In this document: piece after piece, positions 40,386 to 58,088 of the stretch
Layout: each line of letters begins with the position of its first letter
Numbering within the stretch: the first letter of the stretch is position 1
Source of the DNA: Rhizobium sp. Q54
GTDB taxonomy: Bacteria; Pseudomonadota; Alphaproteobacteria; UBA7879; VGCX01
Assembly (NCBI GenBank): GCA_945870825.1
Contig: CAMBTM010000003.1
Location: 5,290-69,289, forward strand
DNA length: 64,000 bases
Direction: 5' to 3'
Notes under the pieces: generated by a model
The model's input: the letters and a program-made list of their open reading frames with translations, nothing else
Told to the model about the DNA's origin: nothing
Database searches by the model: none
Program-made: the position numbers and the translations under genes

Positions 40386-41699
40386 TTGGAATTATGGACA
40401 AGCGTTTCCTGCTTTTTGCTAGGGTTCTTTTTGATATGCCTGGATTTCTATGACAATTATCAAGATGATGTGGCAAAGACGATCGGGGAAGAAGTTTATC
40501 AAGAACCCGAAGAAGCAGAGGCAGCGTTAGCAGAGGCTGAGTCAGATTCCAAGGTCGTCTCGGAGGAAAAAGGGGGCCCCATTGAAACGGTCTTGGTGGA
40601 ATCGCGCGTTAAAAAGGGAGAAACATTAGAGAAATTCCTCATCCGTAATAATATCGATCCAAGTGACCGTCAAGGGATTATCAAGGCTATTTTAAAGTAC
40701 TTTTCACCACGCCTTATTATGCCCGGCCATCGGTTTTATTTCAGAAAGGTGAGGCAAGGCAACGCAAGACAGACAATTCAAAAGATTGTTTTCATCCTAT
40801 CCAATAACAAAAAATTAACCATAGAACGTAATACCCTTGGGGAATTCCACGCGTCATCTCCGCCTATTTTCTTAAAAAAGAAATTGCAGTATAAAAGCGG
40901 GACCGTTGAAGACAATTTTTATGGGGCGGCGATTAAATCTGGCCTCACCAGTTCTCTCATTAGTCAAATAACCCGGATCTATAGTTATTCCATCGACTTC
41001 CAACGTGCTATTGGTCAAGGGGATACCTTTGAAGTTTTGGTAGAGTTGCCCTTTGATGAAGAGACCCGGTATGAAGGACAAGCAGAAGTTGTTTACGCAG
41101 GTCTTTCTCTATCAGCAGGTCCCTTAAAACTATTCCGGTATACATTAAAAGATGGCAGTGTTGAATATTTCAATGAACGAGGGGAAGGGGCGCGTCGGGC
41201 ACTGTTGAAAACACCCATTAAAGGGGCGCGCGTGTCATCAAAATTCGGCAAACGTCACCATCCTGTCCAGGGCTATACGAAAATGCACCGTGGTGTAGAC
41301 TTCTCAGCCCCTCTTGGAACCCCCATCATCGCCTCTGGTAATGGGATTGTGAAAAAGATGGGACGGCTTCGGGGGTATGGCAATTATGTCTTTATCCAAC
41401 ATAATCGAGACTATGGAACGGCTTATGCCCATCTGCACTGTTACGTTAAAAATCTAAGACAAGGGAAGATGGTGAAACAAGGCGATATTATTGGGTATGT
41501 GGGCATGACAGGCACCGCAACAGGTCCACACCTACATTATGAAATCCATTATCGGGGCCAACAGGTCAATCCTCAAGTTGTGAACATGGCGTCTCAGCGA
41601 CATCTTGCGGGGCGGCCATTAGAAAACTTTCTAGCCTTCACCCGCAAAATAAAAGAAAAGGCGGCTTTGTTGAAAAAGCATTCAGAGTATGGGTCTTAA
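40386..41699 (+). CDS. M23 family metallopeptidase (membrane-anchored)
   Basis: 437 aa. N-terminal TM. ..HRGVDFSAPLGTPIIASGNGIV.. and ..GTATGPHLHYEI.. (HxxxD / HxH). Confidence 0.85.
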   Translation: MELWTSVSCFLLGFFLICLDFYDNYQDDVAKTIGEEVYQEPEEAEAALAEAESDSKVVSEEKGGPIETVLVESRVKKGETLEKFLIRNNIDPSDRQGIIKAILKYFSPRLIMPGHRFYFRKVRQGNARQTIQKIVFILSNNKKLTIERNTLGEFHASSPPIFLKKKLQYKSGTVEDNFYGAAIKSGLTSSLISQITRIYSYSIDFQRAIGQGDTFEVLVELPFDEETRYEGQAEVVYAGLSLSAGPLKLFRYTLKDGSVEYFNERGEGARRALLKTPIKGARVSSKFGKRHHPVQGYTKMHRGVDFSAPLGTPIIASGNGIVKKMGRLRGYGNYVFIQHNRDYGTAYAHLHCYVKNLRQGKMVKQGDIIGYVGMTGTATGPHLHYEIHYRGQQVNPQVVNMASQRHLAGRPLENFLAFTRKIKEKAALLKKHSEYGS

Positions 41700-42715: not shown

Positions 42716-42780
42716 TGATACTATCCGTCATTTTTTTTGATTGATATTCCTGCCTTGTCACCGCCGCGTCCCCTCCAATT

Positions 42781-43320
42781 GTTATCCCCGCTCCTCTCCG
42801 CCGTCATCCCCGCGCAGGCGGGGACCCAGGGCAACCCTCAAGAAATTGCGGTCAAAGCATGGCGGCTCAAAGGCCTTTCCGCTTGAGAGATCTCGTTTGT
42901 AACCCTGGGCCCCCGCTTCCGCGGGGGTGACAAAAAAGAAAGAGATCCCCGCATTCTCCACTGTCATCCCCGCCCCCTCCGCCCTCATCCCCGCGGAGGC
43001 GGGGACCCAAGGCAACCCTCAAGATATTGCGGTCAAAGCATGGCGGTTCAAAGGCCTTTCCACTTGAGAGATCTCGTTTGTAACCCTGGGCCCCCGCTTC
43101 CGCGGGGGTGACAAAAAAGAAAGAGATCCCCGCATTCTCCACTGTCTTCCCCGCTCCCCTCTGCCGTCATCCCCGCGCAGGCGGGGAACCAGGGCAACCC
43201 TCAAGATATTGCGGTCAAAGCATGGCGGCTCAAAGGCCTTTCCATTTGAGAAATCTTGTTTGCACCCCTGGGTCCCCGCCTGCGCGGGGATGACGGCGGA
43301 GAGGGCGGGGATGACGACGG
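42781..43320. repeat. Tandem array: three 181-182-bp units, each holding a ~129-bp GC-rich palindromic (MITE-like) family-A element
   Basis: The landmark tcatcc recurs at 42804, 42985 and 43167. Element 1 = 42803-42931, with termini gtcatccccgcgcaggcggggacccaggg / ccctgggcccccgcttccgcgggggtgac (25/29 complementary). Each terminus is itself a ccccgc..gcgggg hairpin. Confidence 0.9.
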
Positions 43321-43437
43321 TGGGGGGGGGGGTAACTTCAACGGTGACCCACGATAACAAAAGGGGGAAACGACGAGGAATGATGGGACAAAATACCCAA
43401 AAAACCATAAAAAAATCCCCCGTGAAGGGGGATTTTT
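43313..43437. repeat. Left copy of a ~125-140-bp direct repeat flanking the AAA ATPase gene
   Basis: gacgacggtgggg..G11..taacttcaacggtgacccacgataacaaaagggggaaacgacgaggaatgatgggacaaaatacccaaaaaaccataaaaaaatcccccgtgaagggggattt. Near-identical to 44954-45095. Confidence 0.9.
43411..43437. terminator. Bidirectional rho-independent terminator
   Basis: aaaaatccccc-gtgaa-gggggattttt. Perfect stem flanked by an A-run and a T-run. It closes both the tsaD side (+) and the ATPase gene (-). Confidence 0.8.
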
Positions 43438-43603
43438 GAAACCTAGAAGAAATCTCAGACGACGCTAATATTTCCCGCTCCTACGTCTACAAGATAGCCG
43501 ATCAGATATTCAAAAGAATCCAAGGATATGTCCCAGAACTGCGCCGTCTTTGTGATGGCGTTGAAGGATGGTGATATAGATTGTCGAATGTGGAAGAACC
43601 CTA

Positions 43604-44842
43604 TCAAATCCACCCTACAGGAATTTGGACGATCTGAGGGGTCACCCATTCGATTGAAACACTTTGATTAATCACCATGCCAAAGGGCAATTGGTGGTCA
43701 TTTACAAACTCAGCCAACGATTTAAGCTGCTTCAGGGTCACAGAGCTACCATATTTTATTTCTATGGGAAGCACGCCAAAAGGCCCATCAAGCAATAAGT
43801 CTATTTCTGCACCATTTTTTGTGCGATAATAATAAGGTTGCCAGTTCGTTACGAATGTCGCCTCTAATCCTTTTAAGATTTCTTCTATGACAAATGCCTC
43901 AAAAGAATGTCCAACAGAAGGATCTTCCATCAAATCCTCCAAAGAACGGATATGCGTTAAATAGTGAAGAAGCCCTGTATCACGGATATATCCTTTTGGC
44001 ATTTTAATCACAGACTTAATAATATTACGCTCAAAGCTTGGCAAAGACCGCCATAAAAATGTTCCCTCTGCGATAGATATATAATCTTTAACTGTAACTT
44101 CACTGATTTCAAGTGCTCTACCTACATCTCTTTTATTAATAATAGTACCTGATAGTTTAGACAAAATAGTTAAAAAGCGCTGATAAGCCAATTTATTGAG
44201 CCGTGGGAATAAATGAGCAATGTCGCGATTGATATAAGTCTCACGATAATTATCCATCCACTGCGTATAGAATAGGTCATTTTGTGCAAGCACGGGCTCA
44301 GGATATCCGCCCTTCACCCAAAACTGTTGCATTTGAGAGATAGACAGCGGTGCTTGACCCTTGACAAGATGACGCGGATTCAATTTTTCAGAAAATAAAT
44401 CATAAAAAGGACTCAGGGGTTTTTGATAATATTCATTCGCTTTCAATGTTCCTAGTTCAATAATACCAATGCGCCCTGCAAGCGTTTCAGAAACATTAGA
44501 TAATAAGGTTGGACTGCTAGATCCTGTAATAATAAATCGTCCTTTTTCTGAGCGCGCCCCATCGATAACACCCCTTAATATTGAAAATAGTTCTGGGTAA
44601 AGTTGGGCTTCATCAATAATCACATGACGCGGATGATGCTGAAAAAACAACGTTGGATTTCTTGTAAGCACATTATAATCATCCGGATTTTGAAGATCGA
44701 TGTATTTCCACCCCTCTATCAAGCTTTTTCCAAGAGTTGTCTTGCCGACCTGTCTTGCACCAAGAAGGGCAATGACAGGAAACATATCCAGCATTTTTCT
44801 TGCTTTATGATCAATATTGCGCTTTACACCAGTCATATCCAT
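43604..44842 (-). CDS. AAA+ ATPase with DUF4143 C-terminal domain (COG1373-like)
   Basis: 412 aa. Walker A ..LLGARQVGKTTLG.., Walker B ..HVIIDEAQLYP.., ..RFIITGSSS... C-terminal ..YYYRTKNGAEIDLLL.. restriction-endonuclease-like fold signature typical of DUF4143. Confidence 0.85.
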   Translation of the reverse strand: MDMTGVKRNIDHKARKMLDMFPVIALLGARQVGKTTLGKSLIEGWKYIDLQNPDDYNVLTRNPTLFFQHHPRHVIIDEAQLYPELFSILRGVIDGARSEKGRFIITGSSSPTLLSNVSETLAGRIGIIELGTLKANEYYQKPLSPFYDLFSEKLNPRHLVKGQAPLSISQMQQFWVKGGYPEPVLAQNDLFYTQWMDNYRETYINRDIAHLFPRLNKLAYQRFLTILSKLSGTIINKRDVGRALEISEVTVKDYISIAEGTFLWRSLPSFERNIIKSVIKMPKGYIRDTGLLHYLTHIRSLEDLMEDPSVGHSFEAFVIEEILKGLEATFVTNWQPYYYRTKNGAEIDLLLDGPFGVLPIEIKYGSSVTLKQLKSLAEFVNDHQLPFGMVINQSVSIEWVTPQIVQIPVGWI

Positions 44843-44953
44843 ACCCTACCCATGGTTTGGATTGGTGTAAAGTGTTTTGTATGATGTGTCCTTACCGCCC
44901 TCTCCGCTGTCATCCTCGCTCCCCACCGTCGTTATCCCCGCTTCCGCGGGGCT

Positions 44954-45095
44954 GACGACGGTGGGGGCGGGGACGGCGTCGGGGGGGGGGTAAACTTCAA
45001 CGGTGACCCACGATAACAAAAGGGGGAAACGACGAGGAATGATGGGACAAAATACCCAAAAAATCATAAAAAAAATCCCCCGTGAAGGGGGATTT
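44954..45095. repeat. Right copy of the direct repeat flanking the AAA ATPase gene
   Basis: Same sequence as 43313-43437 with a ~15-bp insertion (cggggacggcgtcgg), a G10 tract (44981-44990) and the same terminator hairpin. Confidence 0.9.
45068..45095 (-). terminator. Rho-independent terminator downstream of the 292-aa repeat protein gene
   Basis: Read on the minus strand: aaatccccc-ttcac-gggggatttttttt (stem + T8). Confidence 0.75.
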
Positions 45096-45215
45096 ATTAA
45101 TCAAGTAGTATGTCGCTAGTCGTTTTACGGGTTTCCTTCATCTTCAGCTGGGCATTCCACAACAGTGGGAGGCGTCGCGGGGCGGCTGGCCGTCGCCGTC
45201 CGCGGCCTAGAGGCT

Positions 45216-46094
45216 TTACCTATCCGTGAAATTTGTTGGTAACGCCCCATTTTGAAGATTATCAAAACCCAATCTAGTGATCAATACTCTGAAAATTTTT
45301 CTTTCCTCCTCCTGATCTAACAACCATCTCCTGGCTACGGTATACCATAATCCGTTGCCCGCACCCTGATGAAGATTATCAAGGGTTCCCTTGAATATCC
45401 GGTACGCGGCTTGTTTCCCAATAGCATGATGACCTGCTTCAAGCTCAACAATCACTTGATTCCGCAAATTTTCATCATCCACAACCTCAGCTGCTGTGGC
45501 AATAGCATAACGACCTGCTCGAAGCGCAGCAATCACTTGATTCCGTAAAGGCTCATCACGCACAATCGCATCTGCTGTGGTTCCAGGATTATGGACGGCC
45601 ATCGCCGCAATCAACGCAGGTTTATGAGCGTCTGCAAGAGCCTCCAGTGTAGGTGCATCACGCACAATCGCAGCTGCTGTGGTTCCATGATTATCGTCTC
45701 TCATCGCCGCAATCAACTGATCTTTATGAGCGGCTGCAAGAGCCCGCAGTGTATCTGCATCACCCACAATCGCAGCTGCTGTGCCCGGAGCATCACCGCC
45801 GCCCATCGCCGCAATCAACGCAGGTTTATGAGCGGCTGCAACAACAGGTGCAGCAGCAGCGGCATCAGTTAGTGCCCATGTACTATAGGCTGCATCTAAA
45901 TTTGCCTTTATAACCCCGGTCTTTCTACTACTCGCGAGAGCCCTTGCATAATCTGGAGTAGCTTCAAATCTGTCCCATCCACCTTTTCCAGTTTTTGCTG
46001 CCGCTATTGCCTGACTTTGTTCAGTCGATGCACCAACGTCAAAAGCCAAAAGACTGGCCCCCAAAATTATGGCGTTTATCAAAGATTTTTTCAT
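45216..46094 (-). CDS. Secreted Ala-rich protein with ~35-aa tandem helical repeats, unknown function
   Basis: 292 aa. Signal peptide MKKSLINAIILGASLLAFDVGAS. Repeats are AHKPALIAAMGGGDAPGTAAAIVGDADTLRALAA / AHKDQLIAAMRDDNHGTTAAAIVRDAPTLEALAD / AHKPALIAAMAVHNPGTTADAIVRDEPLRNQVIA, plus two shorter degenerate copies. Confidence 0.7.
   Translation of the reverse strand: MKKSLINAIILGASLLAFDVGASTEQSQAIAAAKTGKGGWDRFEATPDYARALASSRKTGVIKANLDAAYSTWALTDAAAAAPVVAAAHKPALIAAMGGGDAPGTAAAIVGDADTLRALAAAHKDQLIAAMRDDNHGTTAAAIVRDAPTLEALADAHKPALIAAMAVHNPGTTADAIVRDEPLRNQVIAALRAGRYAIATAAEVVDDENLRNQVIVELEAGHHAIGKQAAYRIFKGTLDNLHQGAGNGLWYTVARRWLLDQEEERKIFRVLITRLGFDNLQNGALPTNFTDR
45438..45846. repeat. Intragenic tandem repeat, ~105-bp unit (about 4-5 copies, outer ones degenerate)
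   Basis: catcgccgcaatcaac..tttatgagcg.ctgcaagagcc..cagtgta..tgcatcac.cacaatcgcagctgctgtg recurs starting at 45600, 45705 and 45810, with weaker copies at 45438-45599. Confidence 0.85.
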
Positions 46095-47326: not shown

Positions 47327-47945
47327 CGTCATCCCCGCTGCAAGCGGGGCGTGGGACCCAGGAGGTTAGCCGAATGCCTAAAATACCCCTTTTCAACCCT
47401 CTAAAACGTTGGGGGAGTCAAATCGTGAGTAGCCCTAACGGGCTATTTTTCTGGATCCCACGCCCACCTCCGGTGGGCTCTGGAAGACAACGTCGGGGGA
47501 GTCTCGACGAGGCTCTGGAAGACGGCATGGGGGGATCGGTGGGCTCTGGAGGACAACGTCGGGGGGGGATTCAGCGGGGCTTTGGAGCTGATACAACGCC
47601 TACGAAATGTGTGAGAGAAATATAGGCTTTTTTGTTTTAAAGCCCTTGAAAATACTGTGTTTTAGCCCCCCGACGCCGTCTTCCAGAGCCCTGCTGCAGG
47701 CAGGGCGTGGGACCCAGGAGGTTAGCCGAATGCCTAAAATACCCCTTTTCAACTGTCTCAATGGTGGGGGAGTCAAATCGTGAGTAGCCCTAACGGGCTA
47801 TTTTTCTGGATCCCACGCCCACCTCCGGTGGGCTTTGGAAGACGGCGTCGGGGGATCGGTGGGCTCTGGAAGACGGCGTCGGGGGAGTTTTGGCGGGGCT
47901 CTGGAAGACGGCGTCGGGGGAGTTTCAGCTCCAGAGGCCTACGAA
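47327..47945. mobile_element. Two family-B MITE-like elements in tandem (B1 47327-47499, B2 47666-47854), with amplified right-end motifs and a family-C linker
   Basis: B2 has the termini ccccccgacgccgtcttccagagccc ... gggctttggaagacggcgtcggggg. B1 lacks the left terminus. The extra ggctctggaagacggcgtcggggg-type units run to 47568 and to 47920. Confidence 0.85.
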
Positions 47946-47952
47946 CATTCCC

Positions 47953-48696
47953 CTAAACTTTCGACCGACAGACCACTTGGACTTTTACAGCCTTGGCCCC
48001 TGCCTTCAAAAGATTCTCTGCGCAAAACCGTAAGGTGGCCCCAGAGGCCATCACGTCATCCACCAATAAAATGGTTTTGCCTTGGAAGTGAGATTTCATA
48101 GACGGATTCACGTGAAACACTTTTTTCACATTGCGTGCTCGCTCTTTTTTGGACAGTCCGCCTTGAGACGGCGTTTCTTTAAGGCGTTTTAAAATTCCAG
48201 GGGCATGGGGAATCCCTGATTGAAGACTGAGACGCTTTCCAAGTAAGGCCGCTTGGTTAAACCCCCGTTTCAACAAACGCGTCCAGTGCAAGGGGACTGG
48301 GACAATCAGATCAACGTCCTTGAAATAGCCCCGATCACGCAGCATCCAATGGGCAAAAAAATCCGCAAGATAGGTCATGTCACCGTGTTTGAAATTTAAA
48401 ATCAGGGGGCTTGATGCAGGGGTATAACGAAACACCGCCCTTGCTGCCTTGAAGGGAAAGGGATCGGTTAAACACCGCCCGCAGATAATGGTCGGCGCCA
48501 TGGCGCATTCCAACGGCTGCCCACACTGGTCACAAAAAGGGGCACTGATGAATTCAACGACGGGCCAACATGTGGCACACAAAGTATAATCTTGTTCCAC
48601 AGGGATGTGGCACAAGGGACAAAGCGGGGGAATCAAGGGTTTTAAAAAATGGCGAAAAAAGGATTGAATCAAGGCCTTTACCCCCCCCACTAGCAC
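47953..48696 (-). CDS. comF: ComF family protein (phosphoribosyltransferase domain)
   Basis: 247 aa, GTG start. N-terminal zinc-finger-like ..CPLCHIPV..CATCW..FCDQCGQPL..CGRC.. and PRT motif ..ILLVDDVMASGATL.. Confidence 0.85.
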   Translation of the reverse strand: MLVGGVKALIQSFFRHFLKPLIPPLCPLCHIPVEQDYTLCATCWPVVEFISAPFCDQCGQPLECAMAPTIICGRCLTDPFPFKAARAVFRYTPASSPLILNFKHGDMTYLADFFAHWMLRDRGYFKDVDLIVPVPLHWTRLLKRGFNQAALLGKRLSLQSGIPHAPGILKRLKETPSQGGLSKKERARNVKKVFHVNPSMKSHFQGKTILLVDDVMASGATLRFCAENLLKAGAKAVKVQVVCRSKV

Positions 48697-49142
48697 TAAT
48701 TTTGCAGTTTGAGAATATCCTCTTTAGAAAGTCCTGTATACCTTATGATGTCTCCAATAGACATTTGATCCTGCAAAAGATTGATAGCAATACCCCGGAC
48801 CTTTTCGAAAGCACCTTTTTCAAGCCCTTGGCTTATGCCCTGGGTTATGCCTTTTTCTCTGCCTTTATCGAACTGCTCTTGGAAAACGATAGAATAATCA
48901 TCTCGGTTGAATTTCTCAAATTCATATTTTTTCATGATCTCTCCTCTCCATGCGCCAAGATCCAGTAAACTGAGGGCTTTTTTCATCACTGGATCAAAAT
49001 CTTCTGGAATGTTCTCCATGCTTGCAGATTCTTTTAATATTTTCAACCACTGTTTTTTAGGGCCTTCTTCCACCAAATCCAACTTCACCCGGGGCAGTTC
49101 AATTTCCTCCCCCCGACGCCGTCTTCCAGAGCCCCGCTGCAA
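48696..49142 (-). pseudogene. C-terminal remnant of an Rpn/YhgA-like (TIGR01784-type PD-(D/E)XK) putative transposase, truncated at a MITE
   Basis: ..IELPRVKLDLVEEGPKKQWLKILKE.., ..PVMKKALSLLDLGAWRGEIMKKYEFEK.., ..GITQGISQGLEKGAFEKVRGIAINLLQDQMSIGDIIRYTGLSKEDILKL match the C-terminal third of this family. The first 13 codons (MQRGSGRRRRGEE) are read from the left terminus of MITE B3. No nuclease domain is present. Confidence 0.55.
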
Positions 49143-49328
49143 GCGGGGCGTGGGATCCAGAAGGTTAGCCGAATGGCTAAAATACCCCTTTTCAACTGTC
49201 TCAATGTTGGGGGAGTCAAATCGTGAGTAGCCCTAACGGGCTATTTTTCTGGATCCCACGCCCACCTCCGGTGGGCTCTGGAAGACGGCGTCGGGGGGAT
49301 CGGTGGGCTCTGGAGGACAACGTCGGGG
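49109..49328. mobile_element. Family-B MITE-like element, best-preserved copy (core 49109-49298) plus one extra right-end unit
   Basis: Perfect 26-bp terminal inverted repeats: ccccccgacgccgtcttccagagccc (49109-49134) and gggctctggaagacggcgtcgggggg (49273-49298). There is an inner perfect 14-bp pair cgtgggatccagaa/ttctggatcccacg and four local hairpins. Confidence 0.9.
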
Positions 49329-55511: not shown

Positions 55512-56279
55512 ATGAAAAAAGATAATCCGTGTATCCTACTGTCAAATGACGATGGTATTCATGCCCCGGGACTGAAAATCCTCGAACAAATTGCGGCAAC
55601 ACTCAGTGATGATATTTGGGTGGTGGCCCCTTCTTCAGAACAAAGTGGTGCTGGGCATTCATTGACGCTGAACCGCCCACTGCGGGCCCACAAATTTTCT
55701 GAAAAGCGGTTTTCTGTGGACGGAACGCCCACAGACTGTGTCCTGATGGCCATTGAAGATTTGATGGGTGGGAAAAAACCTGACCTTCTGCTTTCTGGTG
55801 TAAATCACGGATCGAACGTGGGTGATGATGTAACTTATTCTGGAACTGTGGCGGCTGCTATGGAGGGGACATCTTTTGGGATTCCATCTATTGCCTTAAG
55901 TCAAGACCTTTCCTGGGGACATCCGGCCAAGTGGCATACAGCCCTTGACCATGCCCCAAGTATCTTGAAAAAACTTATCCATAAAGGTTGGCCCAAGAAT
56001 GTCTTGATCAACATTAACTTCCCCAATGTCATTTCCAAATCTGTTGCAGGCATAGAGGTTGTTCGTCAAGGATTCAGGGCCCCTTATAAATCCATCGTCA
56101 AAGCAGTTGACCCCCGAGGTGGCAATTATTATTGGTTAGGCTGTATCCCAGAACAGTTGGATATGACAGAGGAAACGGATCTCGCCGCCATGGTTAAAAA
56201 GAAGATTTCCATCACCCCCTTGTATTTGGATTTAACCCATGACAAGACACTCAGTCATTTGGCCAAAGCTTTTGACTAA
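55512..56279 (+). CDS. surE: 5'/3'-nucleotidase SurE
   Basis: 255 aa. ..ILLSNDDGIHAPGL.., ..PSSEQSGAGHSLT.., ..GTPTDCV.., ..SGVNHGSNVGDDVTYSGTVAAAMEG.. Confidence 0.95.
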   Translation: MKKDNPCILLSNDDGIHAPGLKILEQIAATLSDDIWVVAPSSEQSGAGHSLTLNRPLRAHKFSEKRFSVDGTPTDCVLMAIEDLMGGKKPDLLLSGVNHGSNVGDDVTYSGTVAAAMEGTSFGIPSIALSQDLSWGHPAKWHTALDHAPSILKKLIHKGWPKNVLININFPNVISKSVAGIEVVRQGFRAPYKSIVKAVDPRGGNYYWLGCIPEQLDMTEETDLAAMVKKKISITPLYLDLTHDKTLSHLAKAFD

Positions 56280-57342
56280 AATTATATTCCTCATTGCTTG
56301 TTTGTTGAGCTTAAGGGGTTATTCTTCCCTTTGGACGCCTTTTACCCATAAGGTCGTCAAGGGCGAAACCCTTGCCGAGGTTGCCCGAAAAACAGGAATT
56401 AGAGAAGACGCGATCATCCAGCAAAACCAACTGAAATCCCCCTTTGCGTTGAAAGAGGGACAAAATCTTCTTCTCCCCAAACCATCGATATTGGAAGAGC
56501 GGGAAGAAAAAGAACGCGTGGCATTAGAGAAGAAGCAACATTCTTCCTTGTCACCCCCGCGAAGGCAGGGACCCACGGTCACAAACAAGATCTTGAAAAC
56601 GGAAAAATTATCTGACCGCAAGGCGTTGACGGATCCCCTGGATCCCCGCCTTCGTGGGGATGACAACAAAGGAAATGGGGATGACAAAAAAGCAATTAGG
56701 GATGATAAAAAAAGAAGTAGAGATGATAAAAAACGGAATGGGAATGACAAAAAAGGAAGTAGAGATGACCAAAAGAAATCCATCCATGTCACCCCAGCCT
56801 CTTCTCTTGTCTCTCCGGCTTCTCCTGTTATTGCAGCCTCTTCTCCTGTTGTTGCTCCCGCTTCTTCTCTTGTCACCCCCGCGAAGGCGGGGGCCCAGAG
56901 CCACAAACGCAATCTTTTAAAACAAAAACCCAGCCCCATCAAAGCGCCCACAAAAAAATTGTGTTTCTTAAAACCCATCAAAGGCCCGACACTCGCTCCC
57001 TATGGTCCGCTGAAGAATGGCACTCAAAATGACGGGATTAATATTGGAGGTAAAAAGGGATCCCCTGTCAAAGCGAGCGAGCATGGCACCGTGATTTATC
57101 GAGGTAATGATATTGAAAGCTACGGCAATCTTGTGTTGATTAAGCATAATGACACCTGGGTTTCAACCTATGGGCATCTTAAAGATATCAAGATCAAACG
57201 GGGTGAGCGTATCAAACGCGGCCAAATAATTGGAACAGTTGGAACCACCGGACATGTGAAAAAACCTCAACTACATTTTGAATTGAGACGTCATCACCGT
57301 CCCGTGGATCCAACCGCTTACCTTGAAAAGAAATCGGACTGA
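56239..57342 (+). CDS. nlpD: LysM + M23 peptidase lipoprotein-like protein (NlpD-like), with a repeat-derived linker
   Basis: 367 aa. LysM ..HKVVKGETLAEVARKTGIREDAIIQQNQL... M23 ..DGINIGGKKGSPVKASEHGTVIY..GNLVLIKHN..STYGHL..GTTGHVKKPQLHFELR... The start is uncertain (overlaps surE by 41 bp). Confidence 0.85.
   Translation: MTRHSVIWPKLLTKIIFLIACLLSLRGYSSLWTPFTHKVVKGETLAEVARKTGIREDAIIQQNQLKSPFALKEGQNLLLPKPSILEEREEKERVALEKKQHSSLSPPRRQGPTVTNKILKTEKLSDRKALTDPLDPRLRGDDNKGNGDDKKAIRDDKKRSRDDKKRNGNDKKGSRDDQKKSIHVTPASSLVSPASPVIAASSPVVAPASSLVTPAKAGAQSHKRNLLKQKPSPIKAPTKKLCFLKPIKGPTLAPYGPLKNGTQNDGINIGGKKGSPVKASEHGTVIYRGNDIESYGNLVLIKHNDTWVSTYGHLKDIKIKRGERIKRGQIIGTVGTTGHVKKPQLHFELRRHHRPVDPTAYLEKKSD
56550..56664. 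mobile_element. Family-A palindromic element copy lying in-frame inside the nlpD-like CDS
   Basis: The termini gtcacccccgcgaaggcagggaccca / tggatccccgccttcgtggggatgac are mutually inverted and match the intergenic family-A termini. A further terminus lies at 56872-56900. Confidence 0.8.
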
Positions 57343-57540: not shown

Positions 57541-58088
57541 AATAAGGCTCTTATGCAAAATGAGTGGGTAAGTGAAAAAGCTAGAAACATATATCCGACC
57601 TCACTTTTTAAAAATCCCCCTCACCGCCCATCATCCAGAGCTGAACCAACGCCTACGAAATTTATGATAAAGAAAAACCCTTCTCTCCATCGATCATTCA
57701 GGCACCGCTAAAGCCCCACCAGTGCCGTCCTCCAAAGCCCACCGATCCCCCCGACGCCGTCTTCCAGAGCCCACCGAAGGTGGGCGTGGGATCCAGAAAA
57801 ATAGCCCGTTAGGGCTACTCACGATTTGACTCCCTCACCATTTTAGAGGGTTGAAAGGGCGCATTTTAGCCATTCGGCTAACCTTCTAGATCCCACGCCC
57901 CGCTTGTAGCGGGGCTCTGGAAGACGGCGTCGGGGGGCTAAAATACAATATTTTCAAGGACTTTAAACCAAAAAAGCCTACATTTCTCTCACACATTTCG
58001 TAGGCGATGGTTCAGCTCTGGATGACGGGCAGGGGGGGTGTTTTTAAATGCTTACCCACTCGTTTTGCATAAGAGCCGATTATTATGA
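57541..58088. repeat. ~550-bp composite palindrome (family-C arms enclosing MITE B4)
   Basis: The left arm ataataaggctcttatgcaaaatgagtgggtaagt .. aaaaatccccctcaccgcccatcatccagagctgaaccaacgcctacgaaat is mirrored by atttcgtaggcgatggttcagctctggatgacgggcagggggggtgttttt .. gcttacccactcgttttgcataagagccgattattat on the right. Confidence 0.85.
57726..57939. mobile_element. Family-B MITE-like element, inverted orientation (B4)
   Basis: Reverse complement of the B2/B3 sequence, including both termini (ccccccgacgccgtcttccagagccc at 57749; ggggctctggaagacggcgtcgggggg ending at 57939) and one extra end unit at 57726-57748. Confidence 0.88.

Follow-up and report, generated by a model that had tools for sequence, protein, structure and literature searches.

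A genome-specific palindromic repeat has very probably become part of the LysM-M23 linker of an NlpD-like protein in an uncultured alphaproteobacterial lineage

INTRODUCTION

REPs usually carry a conserved 5′ head of the GTAG type, and in E. coli, REP units are joined with fixed linker motifs into intergenic tandem arrays, the BIMEs. LytM factors of the NlpD/DipM type are amidase activators that combine LysM with a degenerate M23 domain, and degenerate M23 ligands go with an activator role, as established for NlpD and EnvC of E. coli.

REPINs, or REP doublets, are mobilized by RAYT transposases (PMC3337134, PMC3116915). Other palindromic repeats have been found within genes. The Rickettsia palindromic elements (RPEs; Ogata et al. 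2000, 2002), a form of selfish DNA, are, as summarized in PMC10969869, repeats of ~100-150 bp that lie between genes as well as in frame within unrelated housekeeping genes. The same source and PMC5896051 describe intragenic MITEs, namely, ERIC, QMITE1/2 of Coxiella, and MITEb/e of Anabaena, which overlap with or are fused to annotated ORFs; according to the Discussion of PMC5896051, the overlaps of Coxiella QMITEs with functional annotated genes are at 3′ ends. Here we describe family A, a palindromic repeat in a 64-kb stretch of alphaproteobacterial DNA (the window, meaning the whole stretch analyzed). We conclude that this genome-specific repeat of ~115-130 bp very probably became part of the LysM-M23 linker of nlpD.

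RESULTS

The host gene, nlpD, has a role in cell division and is a 367-aa NlpD-like ORF (positions 56239..57342, plus strand) identified from the ORF list and from Pfam matches to LysM and Peptidase_M23. It encodes one LysM domain (aa 37-80; 56347..56478, plus strand; Pfam E=2e-9; AlphaFold pLDDT 74-91), a long linker, and a degenerate LytM/M23 domain (aa 263-358; 57025..57312, plus strand; Pfam E=2.5e-30; pLDDT 88-97). The N terminus is a probable lipoprotein signal, and the gene order serS-surE-nlpD is the same at relatives' loci L008-L011. In the M23 domain, the metal ligands are degenerate, with NDGIN in place of HxxxD and QLH in place of HxH; N264, N268, and Q344 are invariant across the homologue alignment, and the other M23 protein of the window (40386-41699) retains HRGVD and HLH. 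Because the ligands are degenerate, the product is probably an amidase activator rather than a peptidase, so that of the two roles offered in an earlier note on this DNA, "hydrolase activator or peptidase," the first is the more probable. An identical protein was found in three independent assemblies, two of them megahit-style ENA assemblies (ERZ27280276 and ERZ27280271) and one a Logan assembly (ERR3719156), and it is also present at NCBI. The three share 99.9-100% DNA identity. A family-B repeat marks the point, ~600 bp or less downstream of nlpD, where all three independent contigs stop. No tRNA or tmRNA was found in the 64-kb window.

Repeat DNA makes up ~375 bp (56548-56922), or ~125 codons, of the linker between LysM and M23. 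The earlier note had taken 56547-56910 as a single element; the stretch is repeat DNA, but it is a composite of 1.5 family-A elements and two opposed 21-bp arrays. The full 115-bp family-A element (56550..56664, plus strand), translated as SPPRRQGPTVTNKILKTEKLSDRKALTDPLDPRLRGDD, has the inverted termini that the note had recognized, with 36-nt arms (56543-56578 versus 56636-56671) that are 81% complementary and a predicted RNA fold of -60.1 kcal/mol (z=-6.6). A tandem array of 5.6 units of 21 bp (unit GGGATGACAAAAAAGGAAATA; 56657..56774, plus strand) was detected by TRF and repeat search, with TRF scores of 124 for period 21 and 143 for period 42; it derives from the right-terminus motif and codes for heptads of the form GDDKKxx or RDDKKxx. 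The opposed array of 4.6 units (unit TGTCACCCCCGCTTCTCCTCT; 56787..56882, plus strand), detected by TRF at period 21 and as direct and inverted repeat pairs, derives from the left-terminus motif and codes for P/A/S-rich heptads (VTPASSL VSPASPV ...). Lastly, a 50-bp half copy (56872..56921, plus strand) consists of the left terminus and ~30 nt of interior and is read in another frame than the first copy (VTPAKAGAQSHKRNLLK). It takes part in a direct repeat that the note had placed at 56547-56588 and 56869-56910; the repeat is present but longer than 42 bp, as it spans 60 nt at 78% (56547-56606 versus 56869-56928).

Three intergenic copies of the element lie in a tandem array with a period of 181 bp and 2.8 units (42780..43294, minus strand; TRF, repeat search, and nhmmer), which contains three 129-bp family-A elements, carries 21-bp half-site arrays in its spacers, and is flanked by tsaD and an AAA_14/DUF4143 gene. 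An nhmmer profile built from these three copies alone matched the full copy in nlpD (56550-56663, model positions 1-128, E=2.6e-18, 62.9 bits) and the half copy (56872-56921, model positions 1-50, E=1.2e-6), as expected from the similarity between linker and intergenic copies claimed earlier. Moreover, there are 12 occurrences of the terminus motif GTCAYCCCCGCNNNNGCNGGG in the window, where shuffles predict 0.03; six lie in the array and three in nlpD. The interior likewise parallels the reverse complement of 42876-42902, which reads ttacaaacgagatctctcaagcggaaa. The nlpD copy is 84-90% identical to every other copy over the termini. Its length of 115 bp does not reflect a deletion peculiar to nlpD; copies at other sites mostly measure 115-120 bp, and the 129-bp copies of the array are the long variant.

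Five family-A copies were found in the window and eight on contigs L012-L016. The element plan is two GC-rich REP-like hairpins, GTCAYCCCCGCGnnnGCGGGGnCCCAGGG (hairpin sequence GTCAYCCCCGCG), inverted around a variable spacer of ~60-70 nt to give inverted repeats of ~30 nt. All 10 aligned copies have the left end GTCACCCCCGCGnnnGCGGGGGCCCAGGG and the right end CCCTGGnTCCCCGCnnnCGCGGGGATGAC, the head is (TT)GTCA throughout, flanking TT/AA prolongs the inverted repeat, and 21-bp half-site iterations often adjoin the termini. A solo REP-like hairpin, GTTATCCCCGCTTCCGCGGGGCTGAC, was found at 44931..44956 by pattern matches on both strands. Because the termini are self-complementary GC hairpins, the element resembles a REP doublet, unlike a classical MITE with TIRs and target-site duplications, and no target-site duplication flanked the aligned copies. 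Compensatory change in the long hairpin was seen in 3 of 30 pairs. A search of Rfam gave no match at gathering thresholds and, at permissive thresholds, sub-threshold look-alikes of plant miRNA hairpins alone. Among GTDB species genomes, the pattern of left terminus plus interior had only four matches, which came from one Acetobacteraceae MAG and the genomes of three sphingomonads. All are short REP doublets that share the hairpin and have a different interior. We conclude that, as far as its sequence tells, family A looks like a REP doublet of the REPIN-like kind.

A second clean in-frame copy of 117 bp was found in pgpA (L014:513-629) on a metagenome contig with family-A repeats, which may not come from the organism of the window. 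The copy splits the Pfam PgpA match in two, leaving a 45-aa gap relative to a 157-aa orthologue, and its edges read cacacatt/GTCAC..GTGAC/aagggag, again with no target-site duplication. The insertions in nlpD and pgpA are the only two certain ones in genes; the other family-A copies are intergenic, and no further copy in a gene came from a phmmer search run exhaustively with a single pair of translated frames. Several candidates were set aside. In P0121 (ArnT-like PMT_2), the element lies at aa 50-88, upstream of a domain that starts at aa 166, and probably reflects N-terminal over-extension by the gene caller. The phmmer search, for which the query was a 129-aa ORF over the intergenic copies, returned P0248 and P0250, which are short spurious ORFs, and otherwise unrelated repeat proteins; the score of P0245, a protein of 6010 aa with tandem domain repeats, was inflated by those repeats.

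One way in which the composite could have arisen is by transposition of a REPIN-like element into nlpD, which would have followed a single-strand route of the RAYT/IS200 type without target duplication; the 21-bp arrays would then have expanded in situ. No transposase or RAYT was found among the ORFs of the 64-kb window, and no Y1_Tnp domain was detected by Pfam in nine small ORFs of the window, for which reason we only infer the route. An unlikely but still credible alternative is that a single event of recombination or gene conversion, involving a preexisting tandem BIME-like array such as that at 42.8-43.3 kb, brought in the whole insert. The nlpD segment does share the grammar of the intergenic array, in which an element is followed by 21-bp half-site iterations and then by another element, and its second copy is truncated, as a recombination end point would be. 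The two nlpD arrays face each other, however, whereas the spacer half-sites of the intergenic array have a single orientation; the 42-bp super-period in nlpD suggests local duplication, and pgpA provides a case of clean single-element insertion.

To place the insert among orthologues, syntenic loci of relatives were compared. At these serS-surE-nlpD loci, the orthologues have short, unrelated P/K/S-rich linkers that lack the insert, although orthologous linkers are unalignable and the nearest orthologues are distant, with SerS identity of at most 80%. In the nearest available relative, whose SerS is 80% identical, NlpD has 313 aa and lacks the insert. The terminus motif had no match in the 64 kb of loci L008-L011, and the family-A profile found no copy in ~53 kb of contigs L008, L010, and L011. 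When 5.8 billion protein clusters were searched with six translated frames joined, the linker was found in the NlpD-like protein only, apart from three weak matches. The best named relatives of SerS, 60-64% identical, were generic Alphaproteobacteria, a Nucleicultricaceae MAG, and Rhodospirillales-type bacteria, and no Rickettsia name was present among the SerS matches. These results bear out the lineage-specific insertion envisaged in the earlier note. Neither of the two outcomes that the note had named as refuting was seen: orthologues from relatives in whose scanned DNA no repeat was found do not share the linker, and the linker aligns significantly with the intergenic copies.

Identity to the closest NlpD homologues is ~40% over the whole protein and 59-67% in M23; these homologues have two LysM domains and linkers of ~42 aa in P0002 and still less in the others read, compared with ~160 aa here. 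The retained LysM gave local alignment scores of 100-132 against LysM2 and 78-102 against LysM1 of the nine closest homologues; therefore, LysM1 is the lost domain, and the element lies in the LysM2-M23 tether. MAFFT had placed the element opposite LysM2, but replacement of the second LysM was rejected for the better fit of the retained domain to LysM2. It is conceivable that, once one LysM had been lost, the new tether was recruited, such that 125 residues offset the missing N-terminal region and LysM1 and kept the periplasmic reach of LytM. The protein has one LysM where orthologues have two and lacks their N-terminal LPTRIV..SVW segment, its first array is a charged K/D tract and its second a P/A/S-rich tract, and its 367 aa remain close to the 304-361 aa of orthologues P0002-P0010. 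Similar total length is weak evidence, however, and as the three assemblies are identical, they offer no polymorphism or dN/dS signal; we consider recruitment improbable.

The reading frame stays open across the insert, as the earlier note had stated, and reads ..LSPPRRQGPTVTNK..DPRLRGDD.. and ..VTPAKAGAQSHK..; the junctions of the insert fall at aa 103 and 228. One terminus is translated in two frames within the protein, as SPPRRQGP and VTPAKAGAQ, and the linker thus has its origin at the DNA level. Stop-free frames among family-A copies numbered 12 of 30 forward and 8 of 30 reverse; these counts are indistinguishable from expectation, and an adaptation of the family to openness in all frames was rejected. 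For the insert itself, 43 of 5,000 dinucleotide shuffles (0.9%) kept all 125 codons open. We conclude that, judged from the sequence, the open frame across the insert is under selection. In the AlphaFold model, aa 101-238 have pLDDT of <50 and no secondary structure, although with an alignment depth of 13 sequences low pLDDT is weak proof of disorder, and LysM and M23 reach 74-97. As modeled, the ~125 residues of the insert are apparently unstructured between two folded domains, in line with the looped-out or disordered linker that had been suggested.

It is very improbable that nlpD is instead decaying, with a frame that is open by chance and an M23 part that is unmade or made from an internal start. 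Repeat DNA is often open in several frames, the antisense frame across the insert is open too, and the hairpins of the nlpD copy contain mismatches, which indicate an old insertion. Nonetheless, so few shuffles remain open, M23 keeps all residues that are invariant in aligned homologues, LysM and M23 both fold confidently, and the gene, whose sequence is the same in three samples, has stayed in its syntenic place. Misjoining of repeat reads within nlpD has next to no probability, since, even though contigs of this genome break at repeats (three contigs, at the family-B repeat downstream of nlpD), three different assemblies agree, differing at 0 to 10 positions over 8-12 kb, and the divergence of the nlpD copy from all others makes reads there unique.

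DISCUSSION

Insertion of a family-A element into nlpD, followed by growth of its arrays, would leave a full-length NlpD-like protein that is translated and an insert that is neutral or tolerated. The insert probably persists because its net length is divisible by three, the frame in use lacks a stop codon, and changes in array length do not disturb that frame. The 115-bp variant passes from SPPRR.. into the ..PRLRGDD frame and therefore avoids the right-terminus TGA of the third frame. Because 21 bp equal seven codons, slippage in the arrays is frame-neutral, and because the insert sits in a naturally variable, unstructured tether, both folded domains are untouched.

Rickettsia offers the best-documented case of palindromic repeats that colonize genes in frame, and family A shows unrelated-looking repeats of the REP-doublet type doing likewise in another, uncultured alphaproteobacterial lineage, with independent hits in two genes. 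In nlpD, repeat DNA concretely became ~125 residues of new linker, with one motif in two frames and a 21-bp periodicity that makes expansion frame-neutral. It is a tentative and rather doubtful generalization that a family of the REP/REPIN type, not an IS-derived MITE, colonizes coding sequences outside Rickettsia and that its 21-bp arrays expand in frame into new protein sequence. If true, REP arrays would be a general source, so far overlooked, from which disordered linkers arise de novo. As a warning for annotation, peptides such as VTPAKAGAQ and PRLRGDD within real proteins are repeat derived, and repeats of this family break assemblies.

Like LytM factors of the NlpD/DipM type, the host protein combines LysM and an M23 domain with degenerate Zn ligands separated by a low-complexity tether, and its gene adjoins surE. 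It differs in having a single LysM instead of two and a tether of which ~125 of ~160 aa come from the repeat. With MITEs, family A shares its small size, lack of autonomy, fusion to ORFs, and inverted termini of ~30 nt, but it inserts internally, inside domains or between them, and shows none of the target-site duplications that typically accompany the TIRs of MITEs. The mosaic grammar of the 181-bp array and of the nlpD composite recalls BIMEs, although the composite sits inside a gene, and, to our knowledge, iterated 21-bp half-sites have not been described for BIMEs. Family A is closer to REPINs: two short imperfect palindromes are inverted around a spacer to form a long hairpin, and the element is strongly overrepresented, lacks its own coding capacity, and is not flanked by a target-site duplication. 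Unlike REPINs, which are extragenic by definition, the nlpD and pgpA copies lie within coding sequence; moreover, the head is GTCA rather than GTAG, and the spacer is long.

The closest parallel is with RPEs, to which family A is likened by form and in-gene position, not by sequence comparison. Both are palindromic repeats of ~100-150 bp in several copies, located between genes and in frame within genes, here nlpD and pgpA, and both add a peptide of 38-45 residues that preserves the host protein and falls outside the folded core, as AlphaFold predicts for nlpD. Family A differs from RPEs in that its host belongs to a separate alphaproteobacterial lineage and is no Rickettsia, its termini are REP-like GC hairpins seen also as short sphingomonad doublets, its copies carry 21-bp satellite arrays that have grown to 11 heptads in nlpD, and its documented insertions in genes number only two. 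The analogy with RPEs, raised in the earlier note for a different element, is strengthened by the second clean in-frame insertion in pgpA. We conclude that, by analogy, the nlpD insert is a real RPE-like case from a different repeat family.

Family-A repeat DNA lies in an open frame within nlpD

The nlpD open reading frame (56239-57342, + strand, 367 aa) follows serS and surE, the same order as in relatives, and its start codon lies inside surE with an overlap of 41 nt. Between the LysM domain (aa 37-80) and the Peptidase_M23 domain (aa 263-358) assigned by Pfam, the gene carries inverted termini, as the earlier note had claimed (56543-56578 versus 56636-56671, 36 nt at 81%), and a direct repeat that was present but spanned 60 nt at 78% (56547-56606 versus 56869-56928) rather than the ~42 bp first given. 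Two 21-bp tandem arrays, GGGATGACAAAAAAGGAAATA (5.6 copies, 56657-56774) and TGTCACCCCCGCTTCTCCTCT (4.6 copies, 56787-56882), are opposed in orientation and form an inverted pair. The terminus motif GTCAYCCCCGCNNNNGCNGGG occurred 12 times in the window versus 0.03 expected by chance, with half of the occurrences inside 42780-43294, an intergenic tandem array of 181-bp period that contains three 129-bp palindromic elements. A profile HMM trained on these three intergenic copies alone aligned end to end with 56550-56663 (model positions 1-128, E=2.6e-18) and through model positions 1-50 with 56872-56921 (E=1.2e-6), and thus the proposed match between linker and intergenic element withstood formal alignment with significant similarity. 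Alignments of the copies indicated conservation of the termini and of the ACAAACRAGATCT interior block, and folding of the nlpD element gave a long hairpin (-60.1 kcal/mol, z=-6.6). We conclude from sequence similarity that the nlpD segment is the same element as the intergenic family-A copies.

The segment 56548-56922 is 375 nt long and is read as 125 codons without a stop, consistent with the earlier claim of translation within an open frame, to give LSPPRRQGPTVTNKILKTEKLSDRKALTDPLDPRLRGDD-NKGNGDDKKAIRDDKKRSRDDKKRNGNDKKGSRDDQKKSIH-VTPASSLVSPASPVIAASSPVVAPASSL-VTPAKAGAQSHKRNLLK. When the segment was dinucleotide shuffled, 43 of 5000 shuffles were stop-free in the frame used. The left terminus has two readings in NlpD, SPPRRQGP and VTPAKAGAQ, which indicates that the repetition is one of DNA and does not stem from duplication of a protein motif. 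The right terminus of family A contains TGA in one of three frames, and the 115-bp nlpD copy enters in the SPPRR frame and leaves in the PRLRGDD frame. An antisense ORF of 220 aa (56319-56981, - strand) spans the entire repeat region; repeat composition almost certainly accounts for it, and it could mislead gene callers.

The insert is lineage specific and lies in a predicted unstructured tether

The identical NlpD protein was encoded in three independent assemblies (ERZ27280276, ERZ27280271, and ERR3719156) with DNA 99.9-100% identical to that of the window, an agreement that excludes an assembly chimera. The closest homologues among 5.8 billion protein clusters were 38-39% identical overall and 59-67% in M23, and their LysM2-M23 linkers, with lengths read off the alignment by eye, were unrelated, P/K/S-rich, and much shorter (~42 aa in the homologue P0002 versus ~160 aa here). 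The tatC-serS-surE-nlpD synteny common to the window and its relatives supports orthology of the compared genes; in the nearest relative among those found, SerS is 80% identical and NlpD, of 313 aa, lacks the insert. The terminus motif was absent from the relatives' syntenic loci L008-L011 (64 kb scanned), the profile had no match in L008, L010, and L011 (~53 kb scanned), and the translated linker, used as a query, was seen in no protein but this NlpD. Hence relatives without the repeat family were not found to share the linker, the other result that might have spoken against an insertion.

The N terminus of NlpD (56239-56500) contains one LysM and lacks the LPTRIV..PSVW segment; in every close orthologue, two LysM domains are present. 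The single LysM scored best against the orthologues' second LysM, which places the insert in the tether between LysM2 and M23 and means that LysM1 has been lost together with the N-terminal region. The M23 domain (57025-57312) has NDGIN for HxxxD and QLH for HxH, substitutions that were invariant among aligned NlpD homologues. Degenerate M23 ligands, as in E. coli NlpD and EnvC, mark an amidase activator and not an active peptidase. The nlpD product, with these replacements, is therefore probably a LytM factor that lacks catalytic activity. HRGVD and HLH are retained in the second M23 protein encoded in the window (40386-41699).

AlphaFold2, run on a 13-sequence alignment, gave block-mean pLDDT of 74-91 in the LysM region and 88-97 in the M23 region. 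Residues 101-238 had pLDDT <50 and no secondary structure, noting that unique sequence in a shallow alignment gets low pLDDT regardless. The repeat-derived residues (~aa 104-228) fall entirely within this predicted unstructured tether.

Further copies include an in-frame insertion in pgpA

JGI metagenomes scanned with a family-specific pattern yielded five contigs from one sample, Ga0214919 (L012-L016, GC 42-47%), with eight more family-A copies of 115-120 bp; the source organism may differ from that of the window. One copy of exactly 117 bp lies in-frame in pgpA (L014:513-629), the 201-aa product of which reads ..FTHI-VTPAKAGAQDYKEDLATGNDSATRNAPPVGLDPRFRGGD-KGENDPQEIVIDE... The Pfam match to this PgpA was split in two by the insert, that to the 157-aa L008 orthologue was contiguous, and BLASTP between the two placed a 45-residue gap precisely at the element. 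At the end of another contig, downstream of pilB/pilC-like genes, an ORF that has no annotation (L015:3-680, - strand) reads through a family-A copy in its C-terminal part (..IFVTPASSPVTPAKAGAQGYKQDLATG..). In P0121, an ArnT-like protein of the PMT_2 family, the element is within the N-terminal 90 aa, upstream of the domain, and this N terminus is probably an over-extended gene call. Both the L015 ORF and P0121 may be gene fusions with family-A copies. The remaining copies were intergenic, and copies inside reading frames had one and the same orientation relative to the frame in all cases.

Family A resembles a REP doublet

Both ends of a family-A element consist of a GC hairpin (CCCCGCG-nnn-GCGGGG) with CCCAGGG after it, in inverted orientation to each other. 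Hairpin stems are invariant, whereas loops vary, whether the two arms of a copy or different copies are compared. Comparison of flanks revealed no target-site duplication around the pgpA insertion or other family-A copies; flanking TT..AA prolongs the inverted repeat. Iterations of a 21-bp half-site occur beside intergenic copies (42945-42994, 43284-43331, L012, L015, and L016) and in P0248, a short spurious ORF, and because intergenic copies are flanked too, the iterations are intrinsic to family A. A REPIN consists of two inverted REPs around a spacer and is thought to be RAYT mobilised (PMC3337134). Judged by sequence, the anatomy of family A is that of a REP doublet or REPIN.

Loci with the hairpin in GTDB genomes came from three sphingomonad genomes and an Acetobacteraceae MAG, and a short doublet with a ~10-40-nt spacer was plain in three of the four. 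These short REP doublets (L004:1669-1752, L006:7518-7588, and L007:6392-6471) have nearly the same hairpin, GTCATCCCCGCGAAAGCGGGGACCCAG, and are carried by the Acetobacteraceae MAG, Sphingomonas caseinilyticus, and an uncultured Sphingomonas; Novosphingobium (L005:7059-7130) has two hairpins, the second on the other side of the match. Thus, the hairpin has a much wider distribution than the family-A interior.

Other repeats of the window

A second palindromic repeat, family B (~200-300 bp), occurs at 47333-47575, 47666-47929, 49109-49328, and, inverted, 57714-58018. Its core begins with CCCCGCTGCAAGCGGGG, and inverted CCCCCCGACGCCGTCTTCCAGAGCCC / GGGCTCTGGAAGACGGCGTCGGGGGG motifs, repeated as 31-35-bp tandem arrays, mark its boundaries. 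Each of the three independent contigs stops in or near a copy located ~370 bp downstream of nlpD. ERZ27280271 (contig L002) lacks ~1.6 kb (47524-49131) that is present in the window and in the contig L001 and that includes an ORF of 148 aa and a gene for a comF-like phosphoribosyltransferase; as the break points are in two direct family-B copies, this strain polymorphism resembles a deletion or insertion mediated by repeats. An AAA_14/DUF4143 ATPase gene (43604-44842) adjoins the family-A array between 146-nt direct repeats (43304-43449 and 44963-45108, 83% identical), each containing a terminator-like hairpin, AAAAATCCCCCGTGAAGGGGGATTTTT; its bracketing and location suggest a cassette-like insertion. 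Tandem repeats of 81 bp and 102 bp (45419-45841) lie within ORF 45216-46094 (- strand), which encodes an alanine-rich, secreted-looking protein of 292 aa with no Pfam match.

Proposed history and comparison with known elements

Most likely, an element, or 1.5 units of an array, would have entered a tolerant nlpD tether, survival would have been limited to combinations of length and frame without stops, and the half-site arrays would have expanded afterwards in steps of 21 or 42 bp. Expansion would be frame neutral, since 21 bp is 7 codons, and the 42-bp super-period of the array suggests local duplication. Hairpins of the nlpD copy carry mismatches (GCAGGG and CGTGGGG), the accumulation of which indicates that the insertion is not recent. 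The longer tether may be neutral or may make up for the missing N-terminal region and LysM1; NlpD totals 367 aa, near the 304-361 aa of its closest orthologues.

The anatomy of family A is not that of a TIR/TSD MITE. Family A also differs from typical REPINs in its head, GTCA and not GTAG, and in its long spacer, and neither a RAYT nor another transposase was present among the ORFs of the 64-kb window; mobilisation is therefore inferred. A complete genome that had a cognate RAYT, or a large number of in-frame copies, would make the case more interesting. Rickettsia palindromic elements are ~150 bp, and nearly half of 44 R. conorii copies are in-frame ORF fusions; intragenic ERIC, QMITE1, and Anabaena MITEs are also listed (PMC10969869). 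The Coxiella QMITE insertions that affect functional genes are at 3' ends (PMC5896051). The in-frame copies in nlpD and pgpA uphold the earlier parallel with the Rickettsia phenomenon for another element, and we consider both the observation and its interpretation solid. Family A differs from the Rickettsia elements in its host, which is of a different alphaproteobacterial lineage, in its REP-doublet-like form, and in its satellite arrays, which supply most of the new residues.
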